Positions 7,885 through 54,426 of a stretch of DNA of 64,000 nt are shown piece by piece. Numbering within the stretch: the first letter of the stretch is position 1; every line of letters starts with the position of its first letter. The DNA lies in assembly GCA_028716965.1 (NCBI GenBank), contig JAQUOV010000004.1, positions 8,377-72,376 of the forward strand, in the 5' to 3' direction. The position numbers and the translations under genes are program-made. This DNA comes from Candidatus Omnitrophota bacterium. Lineage in GTDB: Bacteria > Omnitrophota > Gorgyraeia > Gygaellales > Profunditerraquicolaceae. The notes below the pieces were generated by a model, which did not search any database, was not told the DNA's origin, and saw only the letters and a list, made by a program, of their open reading frames with translations.

Positions 7885-7898
7885 AATAAGTATTTAGT

Positions 7899-7971
7899 GT
7901 TTTACGGGTCCTGTCGAGCCTTGTTTTCGCCGCACATTGCGGCTCAAATCAAGTCTCGCCACCCGTAAAAC
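7899..7971 (+). repeat. Family B 73-nt nested-hairpin repeat, copy 1 (purF-purM intercistronic)
   Basis: Outer stem GTTTTACGGGT/ACCCGTAAAAC, second stem CGAGCCTTG/CAAGTCTCG, inner hairpin GCCGCAcatTGCGGC. Second copy at 19476-19548. Confidence 0.7.
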
Positions 7972-8000
7972 TAATCAAGCATTTTATACAAAGGAGATAA

Positions 8001-9008
8001 GTGGTGGGGAAAATAACGTATAAGAAATCCGGAGTGGATATTGCCGGCGCCAATGTTTTTAAAAATAAGATAAAAAGTTTAGTCAGGAGATCCTTCCGCA
8101 AAGAGGTGCTTACGGATATCGGGGGTTTCGGCAGCTTCTTTAAATTACATAAGAATCAGTATAAAGACCCGGTGCTTGTCTCATCAAGCGACGGGGTGGG
8201 GACAAAACTGGTAATTGCAAAGCTGGTTAATAAGCATGATACAGTCGGAATTGATGCGGTGGCGATGAATGTTAACGACATCCTTTGCACCGGAGCCCAG
8301 CCGCTTTTCTTCCTGGATTATGTGGCTTTCAGCAAGGTCAAGGAGGATGTTTTAATTGATGTAGTAAGCGGAATAAATAAAGGTTGCATAGAGAGCGGTT
8401 GCTCGCTTATCGGAGGCGAGACCGCGCAGATGCCTGGGATGTATAAAGACGGTGAATACGATATCGCCGGTTTCTGCGTGGGGGTTGTAGAAAGGAATAA
8501 GATAATTAACGGCAAAAAGATTGAAGTTGGCGATAAGATAATCGGCATTGCCTCAAGCGGCCTGCATTCTAACGGCTATTCTTTGGTAAGAAAAGTTTTT
8601 AATCCCGCAGAACTAAAGAGAATGGGCGCGGAGCTGCTTAAACCTACGCGCATTTATGTTAAGCCTGTCTTAGAGATATTGCGCCAGTACGCAGAATCCG
8701 TCCATGGGGTAGCCCATATTACCGGAGGAGCATTTTACGATAAGATAAGCCGCGTATTGCCGAAAAATATTAACGCCCGTATAGAGAAGAATTCCTGGAT
8801 GCCACCCGAAATATTCCGCCTCATCCAGAGGAAAGGTAATATTGAAGATAAAGAGATGTATCATACCCTGAATATGGGCATTGGCCTGATTTTAGTTGTC
8901 AATGCGCAAGAAGCTTCAGCAATAATCAAGAAATTATCTGAATTGAAATTAAGGTCCTGGGTCATCGGCCAGGCAGTAAAGGGCAGGAGAAAGGTTGAGG
9001 TAGTATAG
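8001..9008 (+). CDS. purM: Phosphoribosylformylglycinamidine cyclo-ligase (AIR synthetase)
   Basis: 335 aa, GTG start after AAGGAG. PurM motifs GGFGSFF, SSSDGVGTKL, GGETAQMPG. Confidence 0.9.
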   Translation: MVGKITYKKSGVDIAGANVFKNKIKSLVRRSFRKEVLTDIGGFGSFFKLHKNQYKDPVLVSSSDGVGTKLVIAKLVNKHDTVGIDAVAMNVNDILCTGAQPLFFLDYVAFSKVKEDVLIDVVSGINKGCIESGCSLIGGETAQMPGMYKDGEYDIAGFCVGVVERNKIINGKKIEVGDKIIGIASSGLHSNGYSLVRKVFNPAELKRMGAELLKPTRIYVKPVLEILRQYAESVHGVAHITGGAFYDKISRVLPKNINARIEKNSWMPPEIFRLIQRKGNIEDKEMYHTLNMGIGLILVVNAQEASAIIKKLSELKLRSWVIGQAVKGRRKVEVV

Positions 9009-9023
9009 GGGGAGGCAATCAGG

Positions 9024-9491
9024 ATGGACGCTTATATAGAATTATTAAAAGAGTCTTATTATAAAGAGCGTAAAAAGCTTGAGGGGATGTGGATTTTTAA
9101 TCAAGAAGGGAAGCTAAGATTTCTGGCGGCAAGAAAAGAGATGCTGGATAAGGCTAAAGAGAACCTTTCCATATCACAAATGTTAGGCCGGCAGGATATT
9201 ACAGAAGATATTAAGGAAAATTTACTGCGCGACCGCAATAATGCAGAAAAAATAGAGGAATATTTGAAGAAGGCTATTGAGGGCGAGTTTTCGAATATTG
9301 AAAATGATGAAAAGGCGGAATTGAGGAACTCACAATATTCTTGCGATGATTACGCGGAATATGTATTGCAGATAGAGAAGGTAAATGCCCTGGAGGCGGA
9401 ATTAGAAAATAACCGTATGTTCTCTGATGCGGTTTATGAAGAGCAGAAAGCAATTGCCGAAGGTAAGAATAAAACAGGAGGTGGGGAATGA
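9024..9491 (+). CDS. Hypothetical coiled-coil protein
   Basis: 155 aa, charged and K/E-rich, no recognisable motif. Start overlaps the next gene, suggesting co-translation with the SPFH protein. Confidence 0.5.
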   Translation: MDAYIELLKESYYKERKKLEGMWIFNQEGKLRFLAARKEMLDKAKENLSISQMLGRQDITEDIKENLLRDRNNAEKIEEYLKKAIEGEFSNIENDEKAELRNSQYSCDDYAEYVLQIEKVNALEAELENNRMFSDAVYEEQKAIAEGKNKTGGGE

Positions 9492-10357
9492 ATATTTTAG
9501 GTATGGTAATTACGGCAGCAGTAGTAATATTCTTTATGGGTATCAGGATCGTGCGGCCTACACATAGAGGCTTAGTTGAAAGATTTGGCAAGTATAATCG
9601 CTTTGCTAACCCGGGATTTAACTGGGTATTTCCTATAATTGAAAATCTCTACCAGATTAATATCACTGAACAAATGGTGGATGCCGAGCCGCAGGAGATT
9701 ATCACTAATGACAACCTTAATGCCAAGGTTGACGCGCAGGTTTATTTTAAGGTAAAGGCAGATGAGGCGGATGTCAAGAACTGCCAGTACAGCGTCAATA
9801 ATTACCAGTGGCAGATCGTAAATTTAGCGCGCACCACATTAAGGAATATAATCGGTACTTTGACTTTAAAATCCGCCAACAGCGAAAGAGGCAAGATCAA
9901 CGCAGAGTTGCATAAAACGCTTTGCGAAGAGACTGCCAGCTGGGGCTTGGAGATTGTAAGGACCGAGTTAAAAGAGATTGACCCGCCCAAAGATGTGCAG
10001 GAGACGATGAATAAGGTTGTAAAAGCCGAGAATGAGAAGATCGCGGCAATTGATTATGCTACGGCAACTGAAACTGCTGCTGACGGTCAAAAAAGAGCAG
10101 AGATTAAAAAGGCCGAAGGTATCAAGCAGGCGCGCATATTAGAAGCTGAAGGCGAAGCCGCAGCGATAAAGTTAGTAAATGAAGCCGCAGAGCATTATTT
10201 TGTAGGTAATGCGCAGGTATTAAGAAAACTGGAAGCGGTTGAGAAGTCATTAGTAAATAACGCCAAGATTGTTATTCCGGCAAATACGGAGTTGGTGAAT
10301 GTGATTGGCGAAATGGCCGGCTTTTTACCGATTAAAAACAAAGAAGAAAAGAAATAG
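9488..10357 (+). CDS. SPFH/band-7 (stomatin/prohibitin-like) membrane protein
   Basis: 289 aa. N-terminal TM, then IVRPTHRGLVERFGKY...PGFNWVFPIIE typical of the SPFH domain, followed by an A/E-rich coiled-coil tail. Confidence 0.8.
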   Translation: MNILGMVITAAVVIFFMGIRIVRPTHRGLVERFGKYNRFANPGFNWVFPIIENLYQINITEQMVDAEPQEIITNDNLNAKVDAQVYFKVKADEADVKNCQYSVNNYQWQIVNLARTTLRNIIGTLTLKSANSERGKINAELHKTLCEETASWGLEIVRTELKEIDPPKDVQETMNKVVKAENEKIAAIDYATATETAADGQKRAEIKKAEGIKQARILEAEGEAAAIKLVNEAAEHYFVGNAQVLRKLEAVEKSLVNNAKIVIPANTELVNVIGEMAGFLPIKNKEEKK

Positions 10358-10393: not shown

Positions 10394-10613
10394 CATTAAT
10401 GAATCTGTCGTTTTGCTCGCTCAGGTCGATTTTTTAACGCCAATGCTCTTTCGCATTTCGGTGGCTGCGGAACTTGCGGTATTTGCTCTTGCAAATACCG
10501 CTCAAGCATCCTCGCCATCCCCGTTTTGTCGCTTCGCTCCACGGGGATACCCGAAATGCTCAAGCTCCATTGGCTAAAATCGACATTCACTCGCAATAAC
10601 GCCAGATTCATTT
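10394..10613 (+). repeat. Family C MITE-like element, copy 1 (about 220 bp, about 45-bp imperfect TIRs)
   Basis: Head AATGAATCTGTCGTTTTGCTCGCTCAGGTCGATTTTTTAACGCCAATG is the inverted complement of tail CATTGGCTAAAATCGACATTCACTCGCAATAACGCCAGATTCATTT. Central hairpin TCCCCGT...ACGGGGA. About 85% identical to the copy at 36728-36944. Confidence 0.7.
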
Positions 10614-10624
10614 AGGCGTATTTA

Positions 10625-10705
10625 AGAGATAAGTTGTATTGTGCACATTTGCCGAAAATTTTCTAATGCGCGCTCCGCCAAAACCGCAAAACTTGATGAT
10701 TTTTA
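10625..10705 (+). repeat. Partial family D element (right-half fragment)
   Basis: GCACATTTGCCGAAAATTTTCTAATGCGC matches the D motif GCACACTTTTGCCGAAAATCTTCTAATTGTGCC seen in copies at about 29860-30085 and 54165-54395. Confidence 0.5.
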
Positions 10706-10750: not shown

Positions 10751-11479
10751 ATGGATGATGGTCGTAAGTTTTTGAGATATATTGTTCCTGCTTTTGTTTA
10801 TTTTGTTGAAGTAATTTTATTTCTATCTTTATTTTTAGTTTTTAATCCTTCAATATGCACATTTAACTTATCAAACGATCTAATCAACGAAAATAATATT
10901 TTAGAAATCATTATTATGGGTTTTATTGTAAGTGGAGGATTAGGTGCTTTTTTTTGTCAAATATACCATGTAATCTATTCATTTCACGTAGTTGACCTTC
11001 GAAATTCCATAATAGATGCTATAGAAAAAGGATGTTTAAAAGTAATGGAGAGGGGCAAAGCTTTAGAAGCTAAGAACATAAAGAATTGTAACAAAAGAAT
11101 TTTCTTAATGATTGATACTGTTTTGTGGAGTCAGCGTAGTGAACTTAACAATAAAATTAAAGGAGCAAAAGATAGGACTCAAACATACCATGATCATTTG
11201 CATGGTATAGGTGGAGTAATTGTTGCTACTTTTTTTGCTTTTGTAAGTTGGTTCTTCATAATCGGATACATAGCAGAAGAAATGTGTCTATTCAATCTTG
11301 CGTATTGGTTTATTATTTGTTCCTGGGTTGTATTATTTATTATCTTCTTTCTTGGATACTTTAGAATAAGGGAACAACTAGAATTTCATCGCTATTCTAT
11401 TTTAATAGATGTTTTGAAAGATGATTTCTTTTGGAATAATAAGAAACCTGCGGAGGTAGATATTCCTTGGGTTAAGTAA
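10751..11479 (+). CDS. Hypothetical 4-TM membrane protein, compositionally foreign (about 30% GC)
   Basis: 242 aa, two hydrophobic helices at each end, central soluble region with HDHLHGIGG. Strongly AT-rich codon usage unlike all flanking genes. Lies directly after the C/D repeat pile-up. Confidence 0.55.
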   Translation: MDDGRKFLRYIVPAFVYFVEVILFLSLFLVFNPSICTFNLSNDLINENNILEIIIMGFIVSGGLGAFFCQIYHVIYSFHVVDLRNSIIDAIEKGCLKVMERGKALEAKNIKNCNKRIFLMIDTVLWSQRSELNNKIKGAKDRTQTYHDHLHGIGGVIVATFFAFVSWFFIIGYIAEEMCLFNLAYWFIICSWVVLFIIFFLGYFRIREQLEFHRYSILIDVLKDDFFWNNKKPAEVDIPWVK

Positions 11480-19011: not shown

Positions 19012-19473
19012 TGTCCGTTTTGCGGATATAAAGAGGATAAGGTCGTGGACTCCCGCGCTACAGCCGAAGAATCGGCAGTCAGGCGCAGAAGGGAATGCCT
19101 GAAATGCGGCAAGCGTTTCACTACTTATGAGTATGTTGAAGAGGTCTCTTTGTTAGTGATCAAGAAAGACGGCCGCAGGGAGGCCTTTGACCGTAAAAAG
19201 ATCTTAGCCGGTATAATCCGCGCCTGCGAAAAGCGTCCGGTGAGCGTGGAAAAGATGGAAGGGGTAGTTGTCCAGGTTGAGCATGCCATCCAGAAGAAAA
19301 GTGACCGCGAGGTTTTGTCCAGCAGGATAGGGGAGCTGGTTATGGAGAAGCTTAAGCAGATTGATGATGTTGCTTATGTGCGCTTTGCCTCGGTCTATAG
19401 GCAGTTTAAGGACGTGGGGCAGTTTATGGTGGAGTTGAGGGATATTTTGGGCAAAGATAAGAAGAAGAAATAG
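19006..19473 (+). CDS. nrdR: Transcriptional repressor NrdR
   Basis: 155 aa. N-terminal zinc ribbon MKCPFCG...CLKCGKRFTTYE plus ATP-cone; GTG start supplied by the element A2 right arm. Confidence 0.9.
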   Translation: MKCPFCGYKEDKVVDSRATAEESAVRRRRECLKCGKRFTTYEYVEEVSLLVIKKDGRREAFDRKKILAGIIRACEKRPVSVEKMEGVVVQVEHAIQKKSDREVLSSRIGELVMEKLKQIDDVAYVRFASVYRQFKDVGQFMVELRDILGKDKKKK

Positions 19474-19475
19474 GC

Positions 19476-19548
19476 GGTTAGCGGGTCCTGGCGAGGCTTG
19501 TTTTCGCCGCGCACCGCGACTCAAATCAAGCCTCGCCACCCGCTAACT
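19476..19548 (+). repeat. Family B 73-nt nested-hairpin repeat, copy 2 (after nrdR)
   Basis: Outer stem GGTTAGCGGGT/ACCCGCTAAC, second stem GCGAGGCTTG/CAAGCCTCGC, inner CGCGcacCGCG. Same 73-nt length and architecture as 7899-7971, with compensatory substitutions. Confidence 0.7.
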
Positions 19549-19587
19549 ATATTTCTTGTCTTTCCCTAAAACATAGAGGAGCCGGTA

Positions 19588-26921: not shown

Positions 26922-27851
26922 GTGAGGATAAAGAATACGGAGATTAAGGTTGTGCTGGGGGATATTACGGAGATAAGGGCGGATGCGATTGTGAATGCCG
27001 CTAACAACAAGCTGGTTATGGGCGGGGGAGTAGCCGGGGTAATTAAGAAAAAAGGCGGCAAGGTGATTGAAGAGGAGGCGCTTAAGAAGGGGCCGATAGG
27101 TATCGGAGAGGCGGTTGAGACTTCCGCCGGAGAGCTGGCGGCAAAATATGTGATTCATGCGGCGACCATGGGAATGGATTTTAAAACAGATGAAGTGATG
27201 ATCCGTAATGCCTGCAGGAGTTCCTTAAAGCTGGCCGAAGAATTGAAGATTGGTTCTGTTGTTTTTCCGGCTTTGGGGTGCGGCACAGGAGGCTTTCCGC
27301 TTTTGGCTTGCGCAAAGATTATGGCGCAGGAAGTGCTAAGACACCTGCGGGAAGAAAATACCTGTTTAGATGAGATTGTTTTCTGCCTTTATACTCAAGA
27401 TGCGTTTACGGTTTTTAATAAAGGCGTTTTAGGGTATTTGGAATACGTGACTACAAAGTTATCCTCGGGCCCGTTTGTGACGGTAGATGCGATTATTGAA
27501 TTGCCCGAGGGGATTGTAATTATCCAGCGCAGCAACCCGCCGTTTGGCTGGGCGCTTCCGGGAGGGTTTGTGGATTACGGCGAAAGCCTGGAGCAGGCGG
27601 TAAAAAGAGAGGCTAAAGAAGAAACAAACCTGGATTTAATTAACATCAAGCAATTCCGCACTTATTCAAATCCCAAGCGCGACCCAAGATTCCACACTAT
27701 CGGTACGGTATTCATTGCTAAAGCAAAAGGTAGGCCTAAGGCAGGGGATGACGCGGCAGGTTTAAAAATTATCAAACCTGCCGAGATAGAGAAGCTTGAT
27801 TTTGCTTTTGACCACAAAGACATCCTTCATGATTACCTCAAAACAAAATAG
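26922..27851 (+). CDS. Macro domain (ADP-ribose/O-acetyl-ADP-ribose binding) fused to Nudix hydrolase
   Basis: 309 aa, GTG start after GGAGGA. N-terminal macro motifs [21 protein letters not shown] and HAATMG. C-terminal Nudix box [29 protein letters not shown]. Confidence 0.8.
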
Positions 27852-27923
27852 GGACGTTTCTTGACCCAATCGGAGAAGTGTCCCCATAGGGGACACTTCT
27901 CCCTTTAGCTTGAGAAACGTCCC
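27851..27923. terminator. Family E 73-nt palindromic hairpin between convergent genes (likely bidirectional terminator), copy 1
   Basis: GGGACGTTTCTTGACCCAATCGGAGAAGTGTCCCC pairs with GGGGACACTTCTCCCTTTAGCTTGAGAAACGTCCC. Located between the Macro-Nudix stop (27851) and the helicase stop (27929). Confidence 0.6.
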
Positions 27924-27928
27924 TAATA

Positions 27929-29809: not shown

Positions 29810-29859
29810 GATTTCTATTATAAGCCAAAAAGCCGCAACCGCAATATAATAATCTCAAT

Positions 29860-30085
29860 TATTCGCTTTCCGTCTTTCGCTTCGGCACGAAGATTTTCGC
29901 TGTGTGCTTCGGTTTACGTCTCGTTTCGGCAGCGCAGGTTCCTTACGCAATAAGGCATTGCCTGCACTCGCCGTAAAGCCTTGCACACTTTTGCCGAAAA
30001 TCTTCTCATTGTGCCTCCAGCAAAAGACGGAAATCTCATGGCGAGAAACAAGCCAAGGCAGCTCCGATAGCTAAAATCATTGATT
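29860..30085 (+). repeat. Family D MITE-like long-hairpin element, copy 1
   Basis: TTCCGTCTTTCGCTTCGGCACGAAGATTTTCGCTGTGTGC ... GCACACTTTTGCCGAAAATCTTCTCATTGTGCC ... CAAAAGACGGAA; arms are imperfect inverted complements. Homologous to 54165-54395. Confidence 0.65.
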
Positions 30086-30113
30086 TATCTTATAATAATA
30101 ATATAATAAAAAT

Positions 30114-34731: not shown

Positions 34732-36732
34732 ATGTCTAAAAATCTGGTTATCGTAGAGTCGCCTACCAAGGCTAAAACCATAAGCAAGATCCTGGGCCAG
34801 GATTTTAGCGTGGTTTCCTCCATGGGGCATATTATTGACCTGCCGCAGAAAGAATTGGGCGTAGATGTAGATAATAATTTCAAGCCGGAATATGTGATTA
34901 TCCCGGCCAGAAAGAAATTGTTGACCCAGCTTAGAAAAGAGGCCAAGTCAAAAGAGAAGATATATGTGGCAACCGACCCTGACCGGGAGGGTGAGGCAAT
35001 CGGCTGGCAGATAAAAGAAAAGGTCTTTAAGGGCAAGGATGTCCTGCGGGTAAGTTTTCATGAGATTACCCCGCATGCGGTAGGGGAGGCCTTTAAATCC
35101 GCACGTGAGTTTGACGCCAATATGATTGAGGCCCAGGTCGGCCGCAGGGTGCTGGACCGTATCGTCGGATATTTCTTGAGCCCTTTACTTTGGAAAAAAC
35201 TTGCCCGCGGTTTAAGCGCAGGGCGCGTGCAATCCGTAGCCTTAAGGCTGATCGTGGAACGGGAACGCCAGATCCAGGCCTTTACCGCCAGCGAATATTG
35301 GGAGATTATCGCGGAGTTATTTAAGCCTAAGGTCTTCGGGGAGAGTAGTTTTTGCGCTAAACTTGAAAAGATAGACGGTGAAAAAGCGCAGATTAAGACC
35401 CAGGATGAAGCGCAAGCGATCGTAGAGCAGCTTAAGGAAAAAGAGTTTAAGGTCCTGGAGGTTAAGCAAACAGAAAAGAAACGCTATGCCCCGGCTCCAT
35501 TTATCACCAGCACTATGCAGCAGGAGGCCTTTAATAAGCTTAAGTTTAATGCCTCCAAAACCATGATGGTGGCGCAGCAGCTTTACGAGGGTATTGATAT
35601 CGGCGGGGATAACCCCCTGGGCTTGATTACTTATATGCGTACGGATTCTCCGAATACCGCTCCGGAGGCAGTTGCCGAAGTGCGTGAGCATATCGGCAGG
35701 GTCTTCGGCAAGGATTTTGTCCCGGAGAAACCGAATTTTTTCAAGGCTAAAAAATCAGCGCAGCAGGCGCATGAAGCGATCCGGCCAAGCTATGTTTCGC
35801 GTTCTCCGGAAAGCATGAAAGATTTCTTAAGCCACGACCAGTTTCGTTTATATGAGCTCATTTATAACCGTTTCCTGGCCAGCCAGATGAAACCCGCTGA
35901 ATTCCTGGCTACTTCGGTAGATATCTGCGCGGATAAATATTTGTTTGCGGCTAACGGAAGCCATTTGCTTTTTGAGGGGTTCCTGGCTGCTTACAACAGG
36001 ACCGAAGAGGAGGAAAAGGATGACGAGGAGGAGAAAGAAAAAAACAAGAATGTGGTCCCTCCTTTAGAACAAGGAGAGGTTCTCGGTCTGACTAAGCTTG
36101 TGCCCTCCCAACATTTTACCAAGCCGCCTCCGAGGTTTTCGGACAGCTCTTTAGTCAAGGCCCTGGAAGAGGACGGGATCGGCCGGCCTTCAACCTACGC
36201 GCCGATTATTTACACGCTCATTCTGCGCGATTATGTGCGCAGGATTAAAGGCTATCTTAACCCCACGGAGCTTGGTTTCAAGGTCAGCGATATGCTGGTA
36301 GAATATTTCCCGAAGATTATAGATGTCAAGTTTACCGCGCTTATGGAGGATGAGCTGGATGAGATTGAAGAAGGCAGGCTTAAGCGCGTGGAGGTATTAA
36401 AAGAATTCTACGCCCCTTTTAAAGAGAGCCTGGATTTTGCCCAGGCGAATATAAAGAAGGAGGTTATTACTACCGATCAGATTTGCGATAAATGCGGCAA
36501 GCCTTTTATCATAAAGTGGGGCCGGCGCGGTAAATTCCTGAGTTGTTCGGGTTTTCCCTCCTGCAAGAATTCCAGGTCTATTACTTCCGGTGTCAAATGC
36601 CCGGAAGAAAATTGCGGCGGGGAATTGATCGAGCGCAGGTCAAAGCGCGGTTTTTTCTATGGTTGTTCAAACTTTCCGAAATGCACCTTTACCTCGCGTA
36701 CGTTGCCGCAGGATAAGGAAGATACGCAATGA
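34732..36732 (+). CDS. topA: DNA topoisomerase I
   Basis: 666 aa. TOPRIM N-terminus MSKNLVIVESPTKAKTISKILG, active-site Tyr region, C-terminal Cys4 zinc ribbons (CDKCGKP, CPEENCGG). Confidence 0.92.
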   Translation: MSKNLVIVESPTKAKTISKILGQDFSVVSSMGHIIDLPQKELGVDVDNNFKPEYVIIPARKKLLTQLRKEAKSKEKIYVATDPDREGEAIGWQIKEKVFKGKDVLRVSFHEITPHAVGEAFKSAREFDANMIEAQVGRRVLDRIVGYFLSPLLWKKLARGLSAGRVQSVALRLIVERERQIQAFTASEYWEIIAELFKPKVFGESSFCAKLEKIDGEKAQIKTQDEAQAIVEQLKEKEFKVLEVKQTEKKRYAPAPFITSTMQQEAFNKLKFNASKTMMVAQQLYEGIDIGGDNPLGLITYMRTDSPNTAPEAVAEVREHIGRVFGKDFVPEKPNFFKAKKSAQQAHEAIRPSYVSRSPESMKDFLSHDQFRLYELIYNRFLASQMKPAEFLATSVDICADKYLFAANGSHLLFEGFLAAYNRTEEEEKDDEEEKEKNKNVVPPLEQGEVLGLTKLVPSQHFTKPPPRFSDSSLVKALEEDGIGRPSTYAPIIYTLILRDYVRRIKGYLNPTELGFKVSDMLVEYFPKIIDVKFTALMEDELDEIEEGRLKRVEVLKEFYAPFKESLDFAQANIKKEVITTDQICDKCGKPFIIKWGRRGKFLSCSGFPSCKNSRSITSGVKCPEENCGGELIERRSKRGFFYGCSNFPKCTFTSRTLPQDKEDTQ

Positions 36733-36944
36733 ACCTTGTAAATTTCTCGCTCAAGCCGATTTTTTAACGCCAATGTTCTTTCATATTCCGGCGGTTGCAG
36801 AACTTACGGTATTTGCTCTGGCAAATACCACTCAAACAGCTTCGCCGTCCCCGTTTTGTCGCTTCGCTCCACGGGGATTCCCGGAATACTGAAAGCTCCA
36901 TTGGCTAAAATCGACATTCGCTCGAAATTTACCAGGTTCATTTT
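36728..36944 (+). repeat. Family C MITE-like element, copy 2 (inserted at the topA stop codon)
   Basis: Head AATGAACCTTGTAAATTTCTCGCTCAAGCCGATTTTTTAACGCCAATG and tail CATTGGCTAAAATCGACATTCGCTCGAAATTTACCAGGTTCATTT are inverted complements. The topA TGA lies inside the terminal AATGAACC. Confidence 0.7.
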
Positions 36945-36970: not shown

Positions 36971-37840
36971 ATGGAAAAATATATTGAGAAGTTTATCCGT
37001 TACCTGGAGATAGAAAAGAATTATTCCGGGCACACTGTGCTTAACTACAGGTTGGACCTTGAGGATTTCGGCAGGTTCCTTGCCGGCACGGAATTAGAAA
37101 AGATAGACTATCTTTCGCTTAGGAAATACCTGGGGGTCTTAAAAGAAAAGAATTTAGGCAACCAGAGTATCGGCCGCCGGCTTTCTGCCCTGCGCAGTTT
37201 TTTCAGGTTTCTCTGCCGTGAAGGGTATCTTAAAACAAACCCTATCCTTATGCTTTCCAGCCCCAAACTGGATAAACACCTGCCTTCTTTTATGACGGAG
37301 GATGAGGTGAGCAAACTTATTGAGTCAGCTTTTGCCAGGGGTGAAGCCGACATCCTGGGTTTACGCGACCGGGCGGTCCTGGAGGCATTTTACTCAAGCG
37401 GCCTGCGTATTTCGGAGCTGGTGGGTTTGAATTTAGACGATATTGATTTTATCGGCGGCATCTTAAAAATAAGAGGGAAGGGAAAGAAGGAAAGGGTGGT
37501 GCCGGTCGGGGAAGCGGCGCTGATGGCGATTAAGAAATACCTGGATAGGAGAAAAAAGCAATCCTCCGCCGTATTCTTAAACAGAAATTCCCGGCGGATT
37601 ACTACGCGCGGCGTACGTTATATACTGGTAAAATACCTGCGCCTGGCCGGGACAAAGCCGGGGGTTTCCGCGCATACCTTCAGGCATTCCTTTGCCACCC
37701 ATCTTTTAAACCGCGGGGCAGACCTGCGCACGGTGCAGGAACTCCTGGGGCATGCGAACCTTTCTACGACCCAGATTTATACGCATCTGACAACTGAAAA
37801 GCTAAAGAGTGTTTATGATAAGGCACACCCGCACGCATAG
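36971..37840 (+). CDS. xerC: Tyrosine recombinase XerC/XerD
   Basis: 289 aa. N-terminal SAM-like domain, catalytic R...HxxR...Y (HTFRHSFATHLL, LGHANLSTTQIYTH). Confidence 0.85.
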   Translation: MEKYIEKFIRYLEIEKNYSGHTVLNYRLDLEDFGRFLAGTELEKIDYLSLRKYLGVLKEKNLGNQSIGRRLSALRSFFRFLCREGYLKTNPILMLSSPKLDKHLPSFMTEDEVSKLIESAFARGEADILGLRDRAVLEAFYSSGLRISELVGLNLDDIDFIGGILKIRGKGKKERVVPVGEAALMAIKKYLDRRKKQSSAVFLNRNSRRITTRGVRYILVKYLRLAGTKPGVSAHTFRHSFATHLLNRGADLRTVQELLGHANLSTTQIYTHLTTEKLKSVYDKAHPHA

Positions 37841-54131: not shown

Positions 54132-54164
54132 TTGATATTTTGTTCTTCGAGATATTGTTCGCAT

Positions 54165-54395
54165 GCGAAAATTTCGCCGTGCGCTAAGCTTTCCGTCTTT
54201 TGTTTCGGCACGAAGATTTTCGCCGTGTGCTTTAAGTTTACGTCTCGCTGCGGCTGCAGTATACTTACGCTGGTAAGATTCTGCCTTCGCTCGACGTAAT
54301 TCCTCGCACACTTTTGCCGAAAATCTTCTAATTGTGCCTTAAGCAAAAGCCGTAAATCTTAGCGAGAGGCAAGTCTCGGCAAACCCGCTAAATTG
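54165..54395 (+). repeat. Family D MITE-like long-hairpin element, copy 2
   Basis: CGCTAAGCTTTCCGTCTTTTGTTTCGGCACGAAGATTTTCGCCGTGTGC ... GCACACTTTTGCCGAAAATCTTCTAATTGTGCC ... CAAAAGCCGTAAATCTTAGCG. Homologous to 29860-30085. Confidence 0.65.
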
Positions 54396-54426
54396 AATAA
54401 ATATCCATTTGCTTTGGGATTAAATT

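Follow-up and report, generated by a model that had tools for sequence, protein, structure and literature searches.

The 64,000-nucleotide stretch of DNA analysed here (the window; positions 8,377 to 72,376 of contig JAQUOV010000004.1, assembly GCA_028716965.1) comes from a Candidatus Omnitrophota bacterium and carries two copies of a dispersed, hairpin-forming repeat, family C. Copy 1 (10398..10612) lies between an SPFH/Band_7 gene (9488-10357) and an unannotated open reading frame (ORF) of 242 amino acids (10751-11479), and copy 2 (36728..36942) lies between topA (34732-36732) and a gene for a xerC-like recombinase (36971-37840). In both, the minus strand is probably the one that folds. The topA ORF matches the Pfam domains Topoisom_bac, Toprim and Zn_ribbon_Top1, and its TGA stop codon (36730-36732) falls within the terminal AATGAACC of copy 2, inside the terminal stem, as a first-pass annotation of the window had pointed out. 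That annotation had placed the two copies at 10394-10613 and 36728-36944; both are real, with the refined limits given above. The identity of about 85% that it reported also holds, at 83% over 166 nt without gaps and 86.8% (184 of 212 positions) with gaps. No further full or partial copy was found in the window with nhmmer.

Family C is a phylum-wide family of non-coding, hairpin-forming dispersed repeats of about 215-240 bp in Candidatus Omnitrophota, not described before in Rfam or in the searchable literature. A 26-mer from its central hairpin (P8) was found exactly at 21 loci in about 15 metagenome-assembled genomes (MAGs) of a species-representative genome collection, with 1-3 matches per MAG and nearly all of the MAGs named Candidatus Omnitrophota. 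A degenerate pattern for the right arm matched at least 120 loci in a metagenome collection, and a profile built from the first 21 copies recovered at least 117 full-length copies, 111 of them distinct, together with truncated ones. Nearly all full-length relatives come from Omnitrophota MAGs or metagenomes, and none was seen in the viral contigs, phage records and plasmid records searched. Rfam 15 gave no match anywhere in the window at gathering thresholds, neither a tRNA nor any other RNA (positions 1-64000). At E values up to 10, copy 1 yielded a single alignment, to the Poribacteria-1 RNA (RF03113), on the minus strand across both internal hairpins and the linker between them. Its score is 17 bits (E = 1.5 in a 421-nt search), where the gathering score is 74.2; it is not credible and does not constitute a match. 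Literature searches on Omnitrophota repeats, miniature inverted-repeat transposable elements (MITEs) or non-coding RNAs (ncRNAs), and on Poribacteria-1, found nothing relevant to family C.

Each copy is essentially one long palindrome. In self-alignment, each is about 80% identical to its own reverse complement, and when folded each forms one interrupted stem throughout, two internal hairpins excepted. The first-pass annotation had described imperfect terminal inverted repeats of about 45 bp. The inverted arms stand, and the length was too low: bulged pairing extends over about 70 nt per arm, with ungapped stretches of 20 nt at 85% complementarity in copy 1 and 36 nt at 81% in copy 2. Both copies fold much more stably than dinucleotide shuffles: for copy 1 the z scores are -10.1 (plus strand) and -10.7 (minus strand), for copy 2 they are -8.4 (plus) and -8.7 (minus), and none of 200 shuffled sequences was as stable. 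The central TCCCCGT/ACGGGGA hairpin noted earlier in each copy is likewise confirmed. The 30-mer that forms it, TCCCCGTTTTGTCGCTTCGCTCCACGGGGA, is the same in both; within the window it occurs solely in these two copies, even at 3 mismatches, and it has no match in shuffled sequence.

The anatomy of the element was derived from family alignments, single-copy folds and RNAalifold (all sequences are given on the plus strand). A long, interrupted closing rod, P1-P5, leads to a three-way junction that carries a hypervariable hairpin, P7, and a second hairpin, P8. The unit is delimited exactly by the two arms of the closing stem. The outer stem P1 pairs AATGNNNCTG with CAGNNNCATT, and its outer 7-15 bp occur in several recurrent, mutually complementary types. 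At least six types of terminus with compensating changes were distinguished, and the stem varies in length, mostly extending 7-15 bp beyond CTG. The resemblance to the ATGAACC end of family A that the first-pass annotation had remarked on is real, and it concerns merely one among these covarying terminus types. Inward from P1, a short variable stem is followed by a conserved internal loop with TCGCTC on both sides, a motif kept in more than 90% of copies on each side. On the minus strand this loop reads 5'-GAGCGA / 3'-AGCGAG in the family consensus, from which we infer that it may form two tandem sheared G.A pairs around a GC/CG step. About one-third of copies carry an optional hairpin of 11-40 nt at one fixed bulge. 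Past P3 come a short helix and then P5, which closes the three-way junction; P6-P7 branch off on one side and hairpin P8 on the other. P7 has at least five interchangeable stem types across copies and a conserved CUCU loop. P1 and P7 are thus the variable parts, and conservation exceeds 90% in the inner arms, loops and junction.

In copy 1, the first arm of P1, AATGAATCTG (10398..10407), pairs with the second arm of this closing stem, CAGATTCATT (10603..10612), as indicated by folds and by family covariation; all 10 of the 10 P1 pairs show compensatory double changes across the family. The first side of the conserved internal loop, TTTTGCTCGCTCAG (10411..10424), lies opposite ATTCACTCGCAATAA (10585-10599), where copy 1 has the variant GAGTGA on the facing side. 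Helix P2 is near-invariant in the family, with 96% of cells paired (helix 3); its first arm, GTCGATTTT (10425..10433), pairs with AAAATCGAC (10576-10584). The first arm of P3, CGCCAATG (10438..10445), pairs with CATTGGC (10568-10574), with 99% of cells paired and four pairs showing double changes (helix 4); in other copies P3 covaries to CAAAAG/CTTTTG and CCAAAG/CTTTGG. P5 pairs GCATTTCGG (10453..10461) with CCGAAATGC (10551-10559) to close the junction, and the hypervariable hairpin P7, GCGGTATTTGC tctt GCAAATACCGC (10476..10501), has a loop that reads CUCU (plus strand) or AGAG (minus strand); in both helices (6 and 8, respectively) all five counted pairs are double-changed. Hairpin P8, TCCCCGT ... 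ACGGGGA (10518..10547), has the minus-strand tip GAGCGAAGCGA, which contains GCGAAGC. In copy 2, P8 (36848..36877) has the same sequence as in copy 1, the core of P7 reads GGTATTTGC tctg GCAAATACC (36806..36831) in the folds, and the second arm of P1, CAGGTTCATT (36933..36942), pairs with AATGAACCTT (36728-36737).

The fold is supported by extensive covariation. In a diversity set of 103 representatives, clustered at less than 95% identity and with a median pairwise identity of 72%, 93.6% of 5052 cells in the consensus helices are paired, compared with 80.0% in column shuffles, and none of 500 shuffles reached the observed value. Compensatory double changes were observed in 39 of 50 base pairs, amounting to 688 cells. 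When partners were slid by 1-3 columns, pairing fell to 24-42%. The element is non-coding, and the possibility that its copies are parts of a duplicated gene fragment was ruled out: stops and frame shifts differ among copies and indels are not multiples of three. The largest recurrent ORF cluster in the related loci is in fact a spurious frame across the family C element itself.

The selected fold is that of the minus strand of the window, and pairing is selected in a strand-specific way. In 101 of 103 copies the minus strand folds more stably than the plus strand, by 13 kcal/mol on average, and its consensus RNAalifold energy is -57.9 compared with -36.7 for the plus strand. For copy 1 the fold energies are -103 (minus) and -91.7 kcal/mol (plus) with RNA parameters and -63.4 and -58.0 with DNA parameters, which point in the same direction; for copy 2 they are -92.2 and -81.0 kcal/mol. 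Wobble pairs in the consensus helices number 137 on the minus strand (where the plus strand has A.C cells) versus 47 G.T on the plus strand. Their share is low on either strand, at 2.7% (minus) and 0.9% (plus) of cells, and compensated double changes are abundant. The asymmetry is 71 versus 22 in copies co-oriented with both neighbouring genes and 24 versus 3 in anti-oriented copies. Because its sign is kept when the element is inverted relative to the genes, a replication- or transcription-linked mutational bias was rejected as its source. Unpaired bases on the minus strand are A 45%, G 31%, U 17% and C 7%, and on the plus strand U 40%, C 34%, A 20% and G 5%. Among predicted hairpin loops, 57 GNA triloops and 27 GNRA tetraloops fall on the minus strand, compared with 3 GNA, 3 UNCG and 1 GNRA on the plus strand. 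The tip of P8 on the minus strand is a GCGAAGC mini-hairpin, a sequence seen 77 times, and consensus motifs for such DNA mini-hairpins occur on the minus strand of 87 of the 103 copies, compared with 19 on the plus strand and 26 in shuffled sequences. GCGAAGC has been described as an "extraordinarily stable mini-hairpin" of DNA (PMC13037366).

The same polarity is seen in all seven hairpin repeats of the window, which comprise families C, D3 and B and a palindrome. On the gene-sense plus strand, purines make up 18-28% of their unpaired bases, as against 69-87% on the minus strand, which also has the more stable fold in six of the seven. This common polarity suggests a rule that is shared by all these families, beyond family C.

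Copies of family C are found between housekeeping genes. The neighbours tested were all of this kind and included queA, tgt, folD, MTHFR, rpsI, rplS, trmD, ruvB, topA, xerC and genes for ABC exporters and a heptosyltransferase. Sequence conservation ends exactly at the ends of P1, no target motif is conserved, and the flanks are merely AT-rich. In co-directional gene pairs, the plus strand of the element has the sense of the genes in 39 cases and the opposite sense in 12. A further ten copies are in intergenic regions between divergent genes and two in regions between convergent ones. On the 5' side of the plus strand the neighbouring gene is very close (median gap 17 nt) and its stop codon is often overlapped; the median gap on the opposite side is 96 nt. 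In 14 of the 39 co-oriented cases, the end of the upstream ORF reaches or overlaps the element, and the terminal AATGA repeatedly supplies the stop codon of the upstream gene, as for topA in the window (36728-36732) and for folD in the related locus L048 (~10082-10090). One gene pair can hold family C in either orientation and at differing intergenic positions. In-place inversion was rejected as the cause of one such orientation flip (L010 versus L061), since the element also lies at a different intergenic position, which makes independent insertion or rearrangement more likely. No promoter belonging to the element was detected: there is no conserved sequence past P1, no -10/-35-like site at a fixed distance on either side and no enrichment by side or strand. 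An intrinsic terminator was also not seen, as no U-tract follows the stem on either strand. In the window, nearly all long ORFs lie on the plus strand and GC skew is positive throughout, which indicates that the window lies on one replichore, with genes co-oriented with replication.

Several observations support occasional mobility of family C. Five pairs of copies are 94-98% identical in loci that otherwise share nothing, and their similarity stops at the closing stem. At orthologous sites the element can be present or absent; L035, when compared with L053, has a clean site without the element. At L040 (~8507-8530), only a 23-nt end of the element is left, still supplying the folD stop codon. 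An internally deleted copy in L086 (2274-2359), which joins two TTTTGTCGCT motifs, one from the left internal loop and one from the P8 loop, and solo right arms in L060, L088, L101 and L115 are decay products of family C. In addition, family C forms mosaics with at least three other hairpin repeat families that are also present in the window, including one chimera of family C arms and the core of another family (a D3 relative; L015 4620-4750).

These other repeats share intergenic regions with family C. Family D3 (~80 nt) is present in the window at 7885-7975 and 19462-19552 (80% identical over 81 aligned nt), with stems ACGGGT/ACCCGT and CGAGCCTTG/CAAG.CTCG around a GCCGC..GCGGC hairpin, and its relatives adjoin family C copies in many Omnitrophota loci. 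Family B is an inverted-repeat element of about 185 nt with copies at 29862-30048 and 54185-54371 and a half copy at 10639-10683, a solo right arm 25 nt downstream of copy 1 of family C. In other genomes, family C also occurs in the intergenic regions orthologous to those of both full family B copies: the window holds only the other repeat family at 54132-54426, where L061, L079 and L094 also have family C, and at 29810-30113, where L028 does. A 77-nt near-perfect palindrome at 27849-27925 (arms of 37 nt, 84% complementary and 3 nt apart) has a related sequence beside L015 4560-4620 and probably represents a fourth repeat family.

At orthologous sites, resident copies persist and diverge far less quickly than synonymous sites do. 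Across four groups of orthologous loci, the element is 72-92% identical, and four-fold degenerate sites of the adjacent genes are 35-67% identical, near saturation; between the window and L006 the values are 92% and 43%. Family C is conserved at a level comparable to that of the neighbouring housekeeping proteins. Orthologues also have locus-specific features in common, such as TTTTGCTCGCTC and the P1 type shared by copy 1, L006 and L090. P7 can be replaced wholesale between orthologues, indicating exchange among copies.

As a kind of element, the bacterial intergenic palindromic repeat is already known; the architecture and conservation pattern of family C differ from those of the REPIN, ERIC and MITE families. 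REPINs are hairpins with common compensatory changes for which a single-stranded DNA intermediate has been proposed (Bertels & Rainey 2011, PMC3116915). Like family C, REPINs and REP-BIMEs, which are associated with RAYT (TnpA-REP) tyrosine transposases, are non-coding palindromes of intergenic regions that fold into a long hairpin when the nucleic acid is single-stranded. REPINs also share with it compensatory hairpin changes, the lack of target-site duplication and of an internal transposase, repeat clusters and mosaics in the same intergenic regions, and long-term vertical persistence. However, REPINs are about 70-110 bp long, with the ends (REP 16-mers) most conserved and the spacer variable, whereas family C is about 215-240 bp long with a branched, conserved core. 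There is no sequence similarity between the two, no RAYT could be linked to family C, and copies of family C appear to number tens at most, not hundreds. The ERIC or IRU elements of Enterobacteriaceae, imperfect palindromes of about 127 bp that have been listed as MITEs (PMC3184786), resemble family C in occupying transcribed intergenic regions in either orientation, in their low to moderate copy number and strong cross-species conservation, and in an occupancy of intergenic regions that varies between genomes. ERIC-type elements are reported to have terminal inverted repeats, target duplications and a flanking 5'-TA-3' (PMC3184786). Family C is set apart from them by the absence of a TA target duplication, by a three-way junction in place of a single rod, and by its occurrence in another phylum.

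A further likeness is to single-stranded DNA hairpin signals with GCGAAGC-type mini-hairpins, such as the phage G4 origin, ssiA and the N4 early promoters (PMC13037366). The minus-strand tip of P8 is of the same kind, its variants in family C fit GCGNNAGC or CCGNNAGG, and a strand-specific folded DNA is plausible. These signals belong to origins and promoters of phages or plasmids. Family C, by contrast, is dispersed in the chromosome between housekeeping genes, and a phage, plasmid or viral origin of the element was rejected, with no match in the collections searched. Two other candidates were also rejected. Retron msr-msd RNA has paired ends like those of family C, but no reverse transcriptase lies beside the window copies or among the neighbours tested (SPFH, topA, xerC, queA, folD, rpsI and others). 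Integron attC sites are 57-141-bp palindromes, conserved in structure and not in sequence, that follow cassette ORFs in arrays beside intI; family C is longer, has a conserved core sequence and core housekeeping flanks, and forms no arrays.

On the best reading of these comparisons, family C would in its behaviour be closest to REPIN/BIME and ERIC-type elements and not to a MITE moved by a DDE transposase. We tentatively rank first, as an explanation with somewhat less than an even chance of being correct, a REPIN/ERIC-like structured repeat that would act as single-stranded DNA or RNA, spread rarely through a single-stranded minus-strand hairpin and have its folded DNA form recognised by proteins. 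This explanation is suggested by the exact hairpin-bounded unit, the lack of target-site duplication, the mosaics, the low number of wobble pairs and the presence of the DNA mini-hairpin motif, as well as by the REPIN precedent of a hairpin with compensatory changes (PMC3116915). Under this scheme, family C would be propagated rarely and in trans via a single-stranded minus-strand hairpin intermediate, and the mobilising enzyme would be a tyrosine HUH enzyme (RAYT/IS200-type) or an equivalent, as with REPINs. Resident copies, in a folded single-stranded or cruciform state, would probably be recognised by a host or domesticated protein. The 3:1 orientation bias would reflect selection for having the less stable strand, with its pyrimidine loops, in the mRNA of the operon and on the template of the lagging strand.

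Several results weigh against such a REPIN/ERIC-like element. No RAYT/IS200-type or other transposase and no reverse transcriptase was found among the neighbours and recurrent ORF clusters in the regions covered (~8-14 kb around each copy, 916 kb in all, as distinct from whole genomes). The REPIN conservation pattern is reversed, in that the ends of family C are variable and its middle is conserved. Copy number appears modest beside that of typical REPIN populations, which is much higher: the 64-kb window has two copies, and about 850 kb of flanking sequence yielded about three more full ones. The three-way junction, optional branch and A/G-rich loops look more elaborate than any known transposase-binding hairpin and resemble structured RNA, and the strong orthologous conservation argues for a resident function that a REPIN/ERIC-like origin leaves unspecified. 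In the IS608 paradigm, the active strand lies on the lagging-strand template. The folded strand of family C lies on the leading-strand template and the transcription template in about three-quarters of copies, opposite to that paradigm, so that the selected strand and the usual orientation are in conflict.

Three other explanations were weighed, of which the classical MITE can be considered very improbable. Bacterial MITEs are defined by terminal inverted repeats, target-site duplications and a trans-acting DDE transposase, with conserved termini and a cognate insertion sequence (IS) (PMC3184786), and family C would in this case be an IS deletion derivative mobilised through its ~45-bp inverted repeats. 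It does resemble families such as Correia/NEMIS, RUP and Nezha in being small, non-autonomous and intergenic, with arms like terminal inverted repeats that may overlap gene ends. The first-pass annotation had called it MITE-like, and the non-coding sequence, inverted arms and signs of past mobility support this in part, as do the dispersed copies, presence/absence polymorphism, truncated remnants and the terminus AATGAAYCTG, which recurs in many copies and in the chimera with the core of another family. The defining features were not found, however. Of 103 copies, 47 have no direct repeat beside the arms, 43 have one of 1 nt, 10 one of 2 nt and 3 one of 3 nt, and the junctions of near-identical copies in unrelated flanks are clean; this lack of target-site duplications largely refutes the MITE explanation. 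The termini are variable with compensation and the interior is conserved, which is the converse of the conserved termini of MITEs (PMC3184786). The search for a cognate transposase sharing the inverted repeats, proposed in the first-pass annotation, found none in the 916 kb of related loci, nor was there a parent element or an arm pair enclosing a longer insert. A multi-helix fold under strand-specific selection, orthologous copies far better conserved than neutral sites, and copies that are old and divergent with no recent burst (those in the window differ by 13%) also speak against it. Less improbable than a MITE, although still unlikely, is a cis-acting hairpin of operon transcripts, an ERIC/REP-like "operon punctuation" that is co-transcribed with its flanking genes in whichever orientation and would stabilise 3' ends, serve RNase III/E as a processing site or insulate genes from one another in translation. 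This would fit copies wedged into very short spacers between co-directional housekeeping genes, the frequent overlap with an upstream stop codon such as that of topA (the 14 of 39 co-oriented cases), the presence of both orientations within the same gene context and the strong orthologous conservation. Pairing is near-perfect Watson-Crick, so either strand folds, and all seven hairpin repeats of the window place the pyrimidine-looped strand in mRNA. On the other hand, the selected strand is absent from the mRNA in about three-quarters of copies (39 versus 12), and the asymmetry does not flip with orientation. Conserved loops and a three-way junction are unnecessary for a simple stabilising hairpin, and the ten copies in divergent promoter regions would lie outside any operon transcript.

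Of the RNA explanations, a multi-copy structured ncRNA gene on the minus strand appears the more probable, although we regard it as doubtful. Its product would be a three-way-junction RNA of about 215 nt with its ends paired in P1, expressed from variable flanking promoters, for instance through divergent activity of the promoter that serves the gene 5' of it, and spread by duplication or retro-duplication. The very strong covariation with conserved loops and junctions, the purifying selection at orthologous loci, and the optional and variable-length hairpins at fixed positions are consistent with this, as is the A/G-rich composition of unpaired minus-strand bases, typical of structured RNAs, together with the GNRA/GNA loops and tandem G.A motifs. 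The larger spacer lies on the 5' side of such an RNA (median 96 nt versus 17 nt on the 3' side), also in anti-oriented copies, and in 49 of 63 cases the gene across that spacer is divergent. Nevertheless, nothing is conserved outside P1, and promoter-like hits are not commoner on the required side (45 of 91) than on control sides (29-44 of 91). In about one-quarter of copies the next ORF is at most 32 nt away, P1 is not followed by a U-tract of the terminator kind, and the RNA would usually be antisense to tightly packed operons. Wobble pairs are rare for so divergent an RNA family (the 2.7% of cells noted above, against 688 double-change cells), and the loop that predominates is C(GAA)G, the triloop found in the DNA mini-hairpin, not a tetraloop. 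The behaviour as a mobile unit with exact boundaries and mosaics with other repeats, and the absence of an Rfam match, also weigh against an ncRNA. In its broader form, this explanation would make the minus-strand three-way-junction molecule of about 215 nt a new class of nucleic acid, either RNA or a retron-like single-stranded DNA made from a sense transcript, that is multi-copy, occasionally mobile and under purifying selection phylum-wide; this, too, seems rather unlikely. If true, the molecule would be a bacterial "SINE-like" (short interspersed nuclear element-like) functional ncRNA with a dedicated protein partner. The REPIN/ERIC-like repeat is ranked before both the minus-strand ncRNA and the cis-acting mRNA hairpin.

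Omnitrophota are uncultured, often ultra-small bacteria, and we found no published description of their non-coding repertoire. For this phylum, family C provides a very well supported consensus structure, backed by over 100 diverse sequences and 39 pairs that covary. The intergenic regions of Omnitrophota are shared and reshaped by several such families, with effects on the assembly and annotation of MAGs. Family C also bears on the old question, raised by REP, ERIC and REPIN sequences, of whether palindromic repeats are parasites, domesticated DNA signals or RNAs. To this question it adds an information-rich case with a clear strand asymmetry, in which the selected strand is usually antisense to the surrounding genes.

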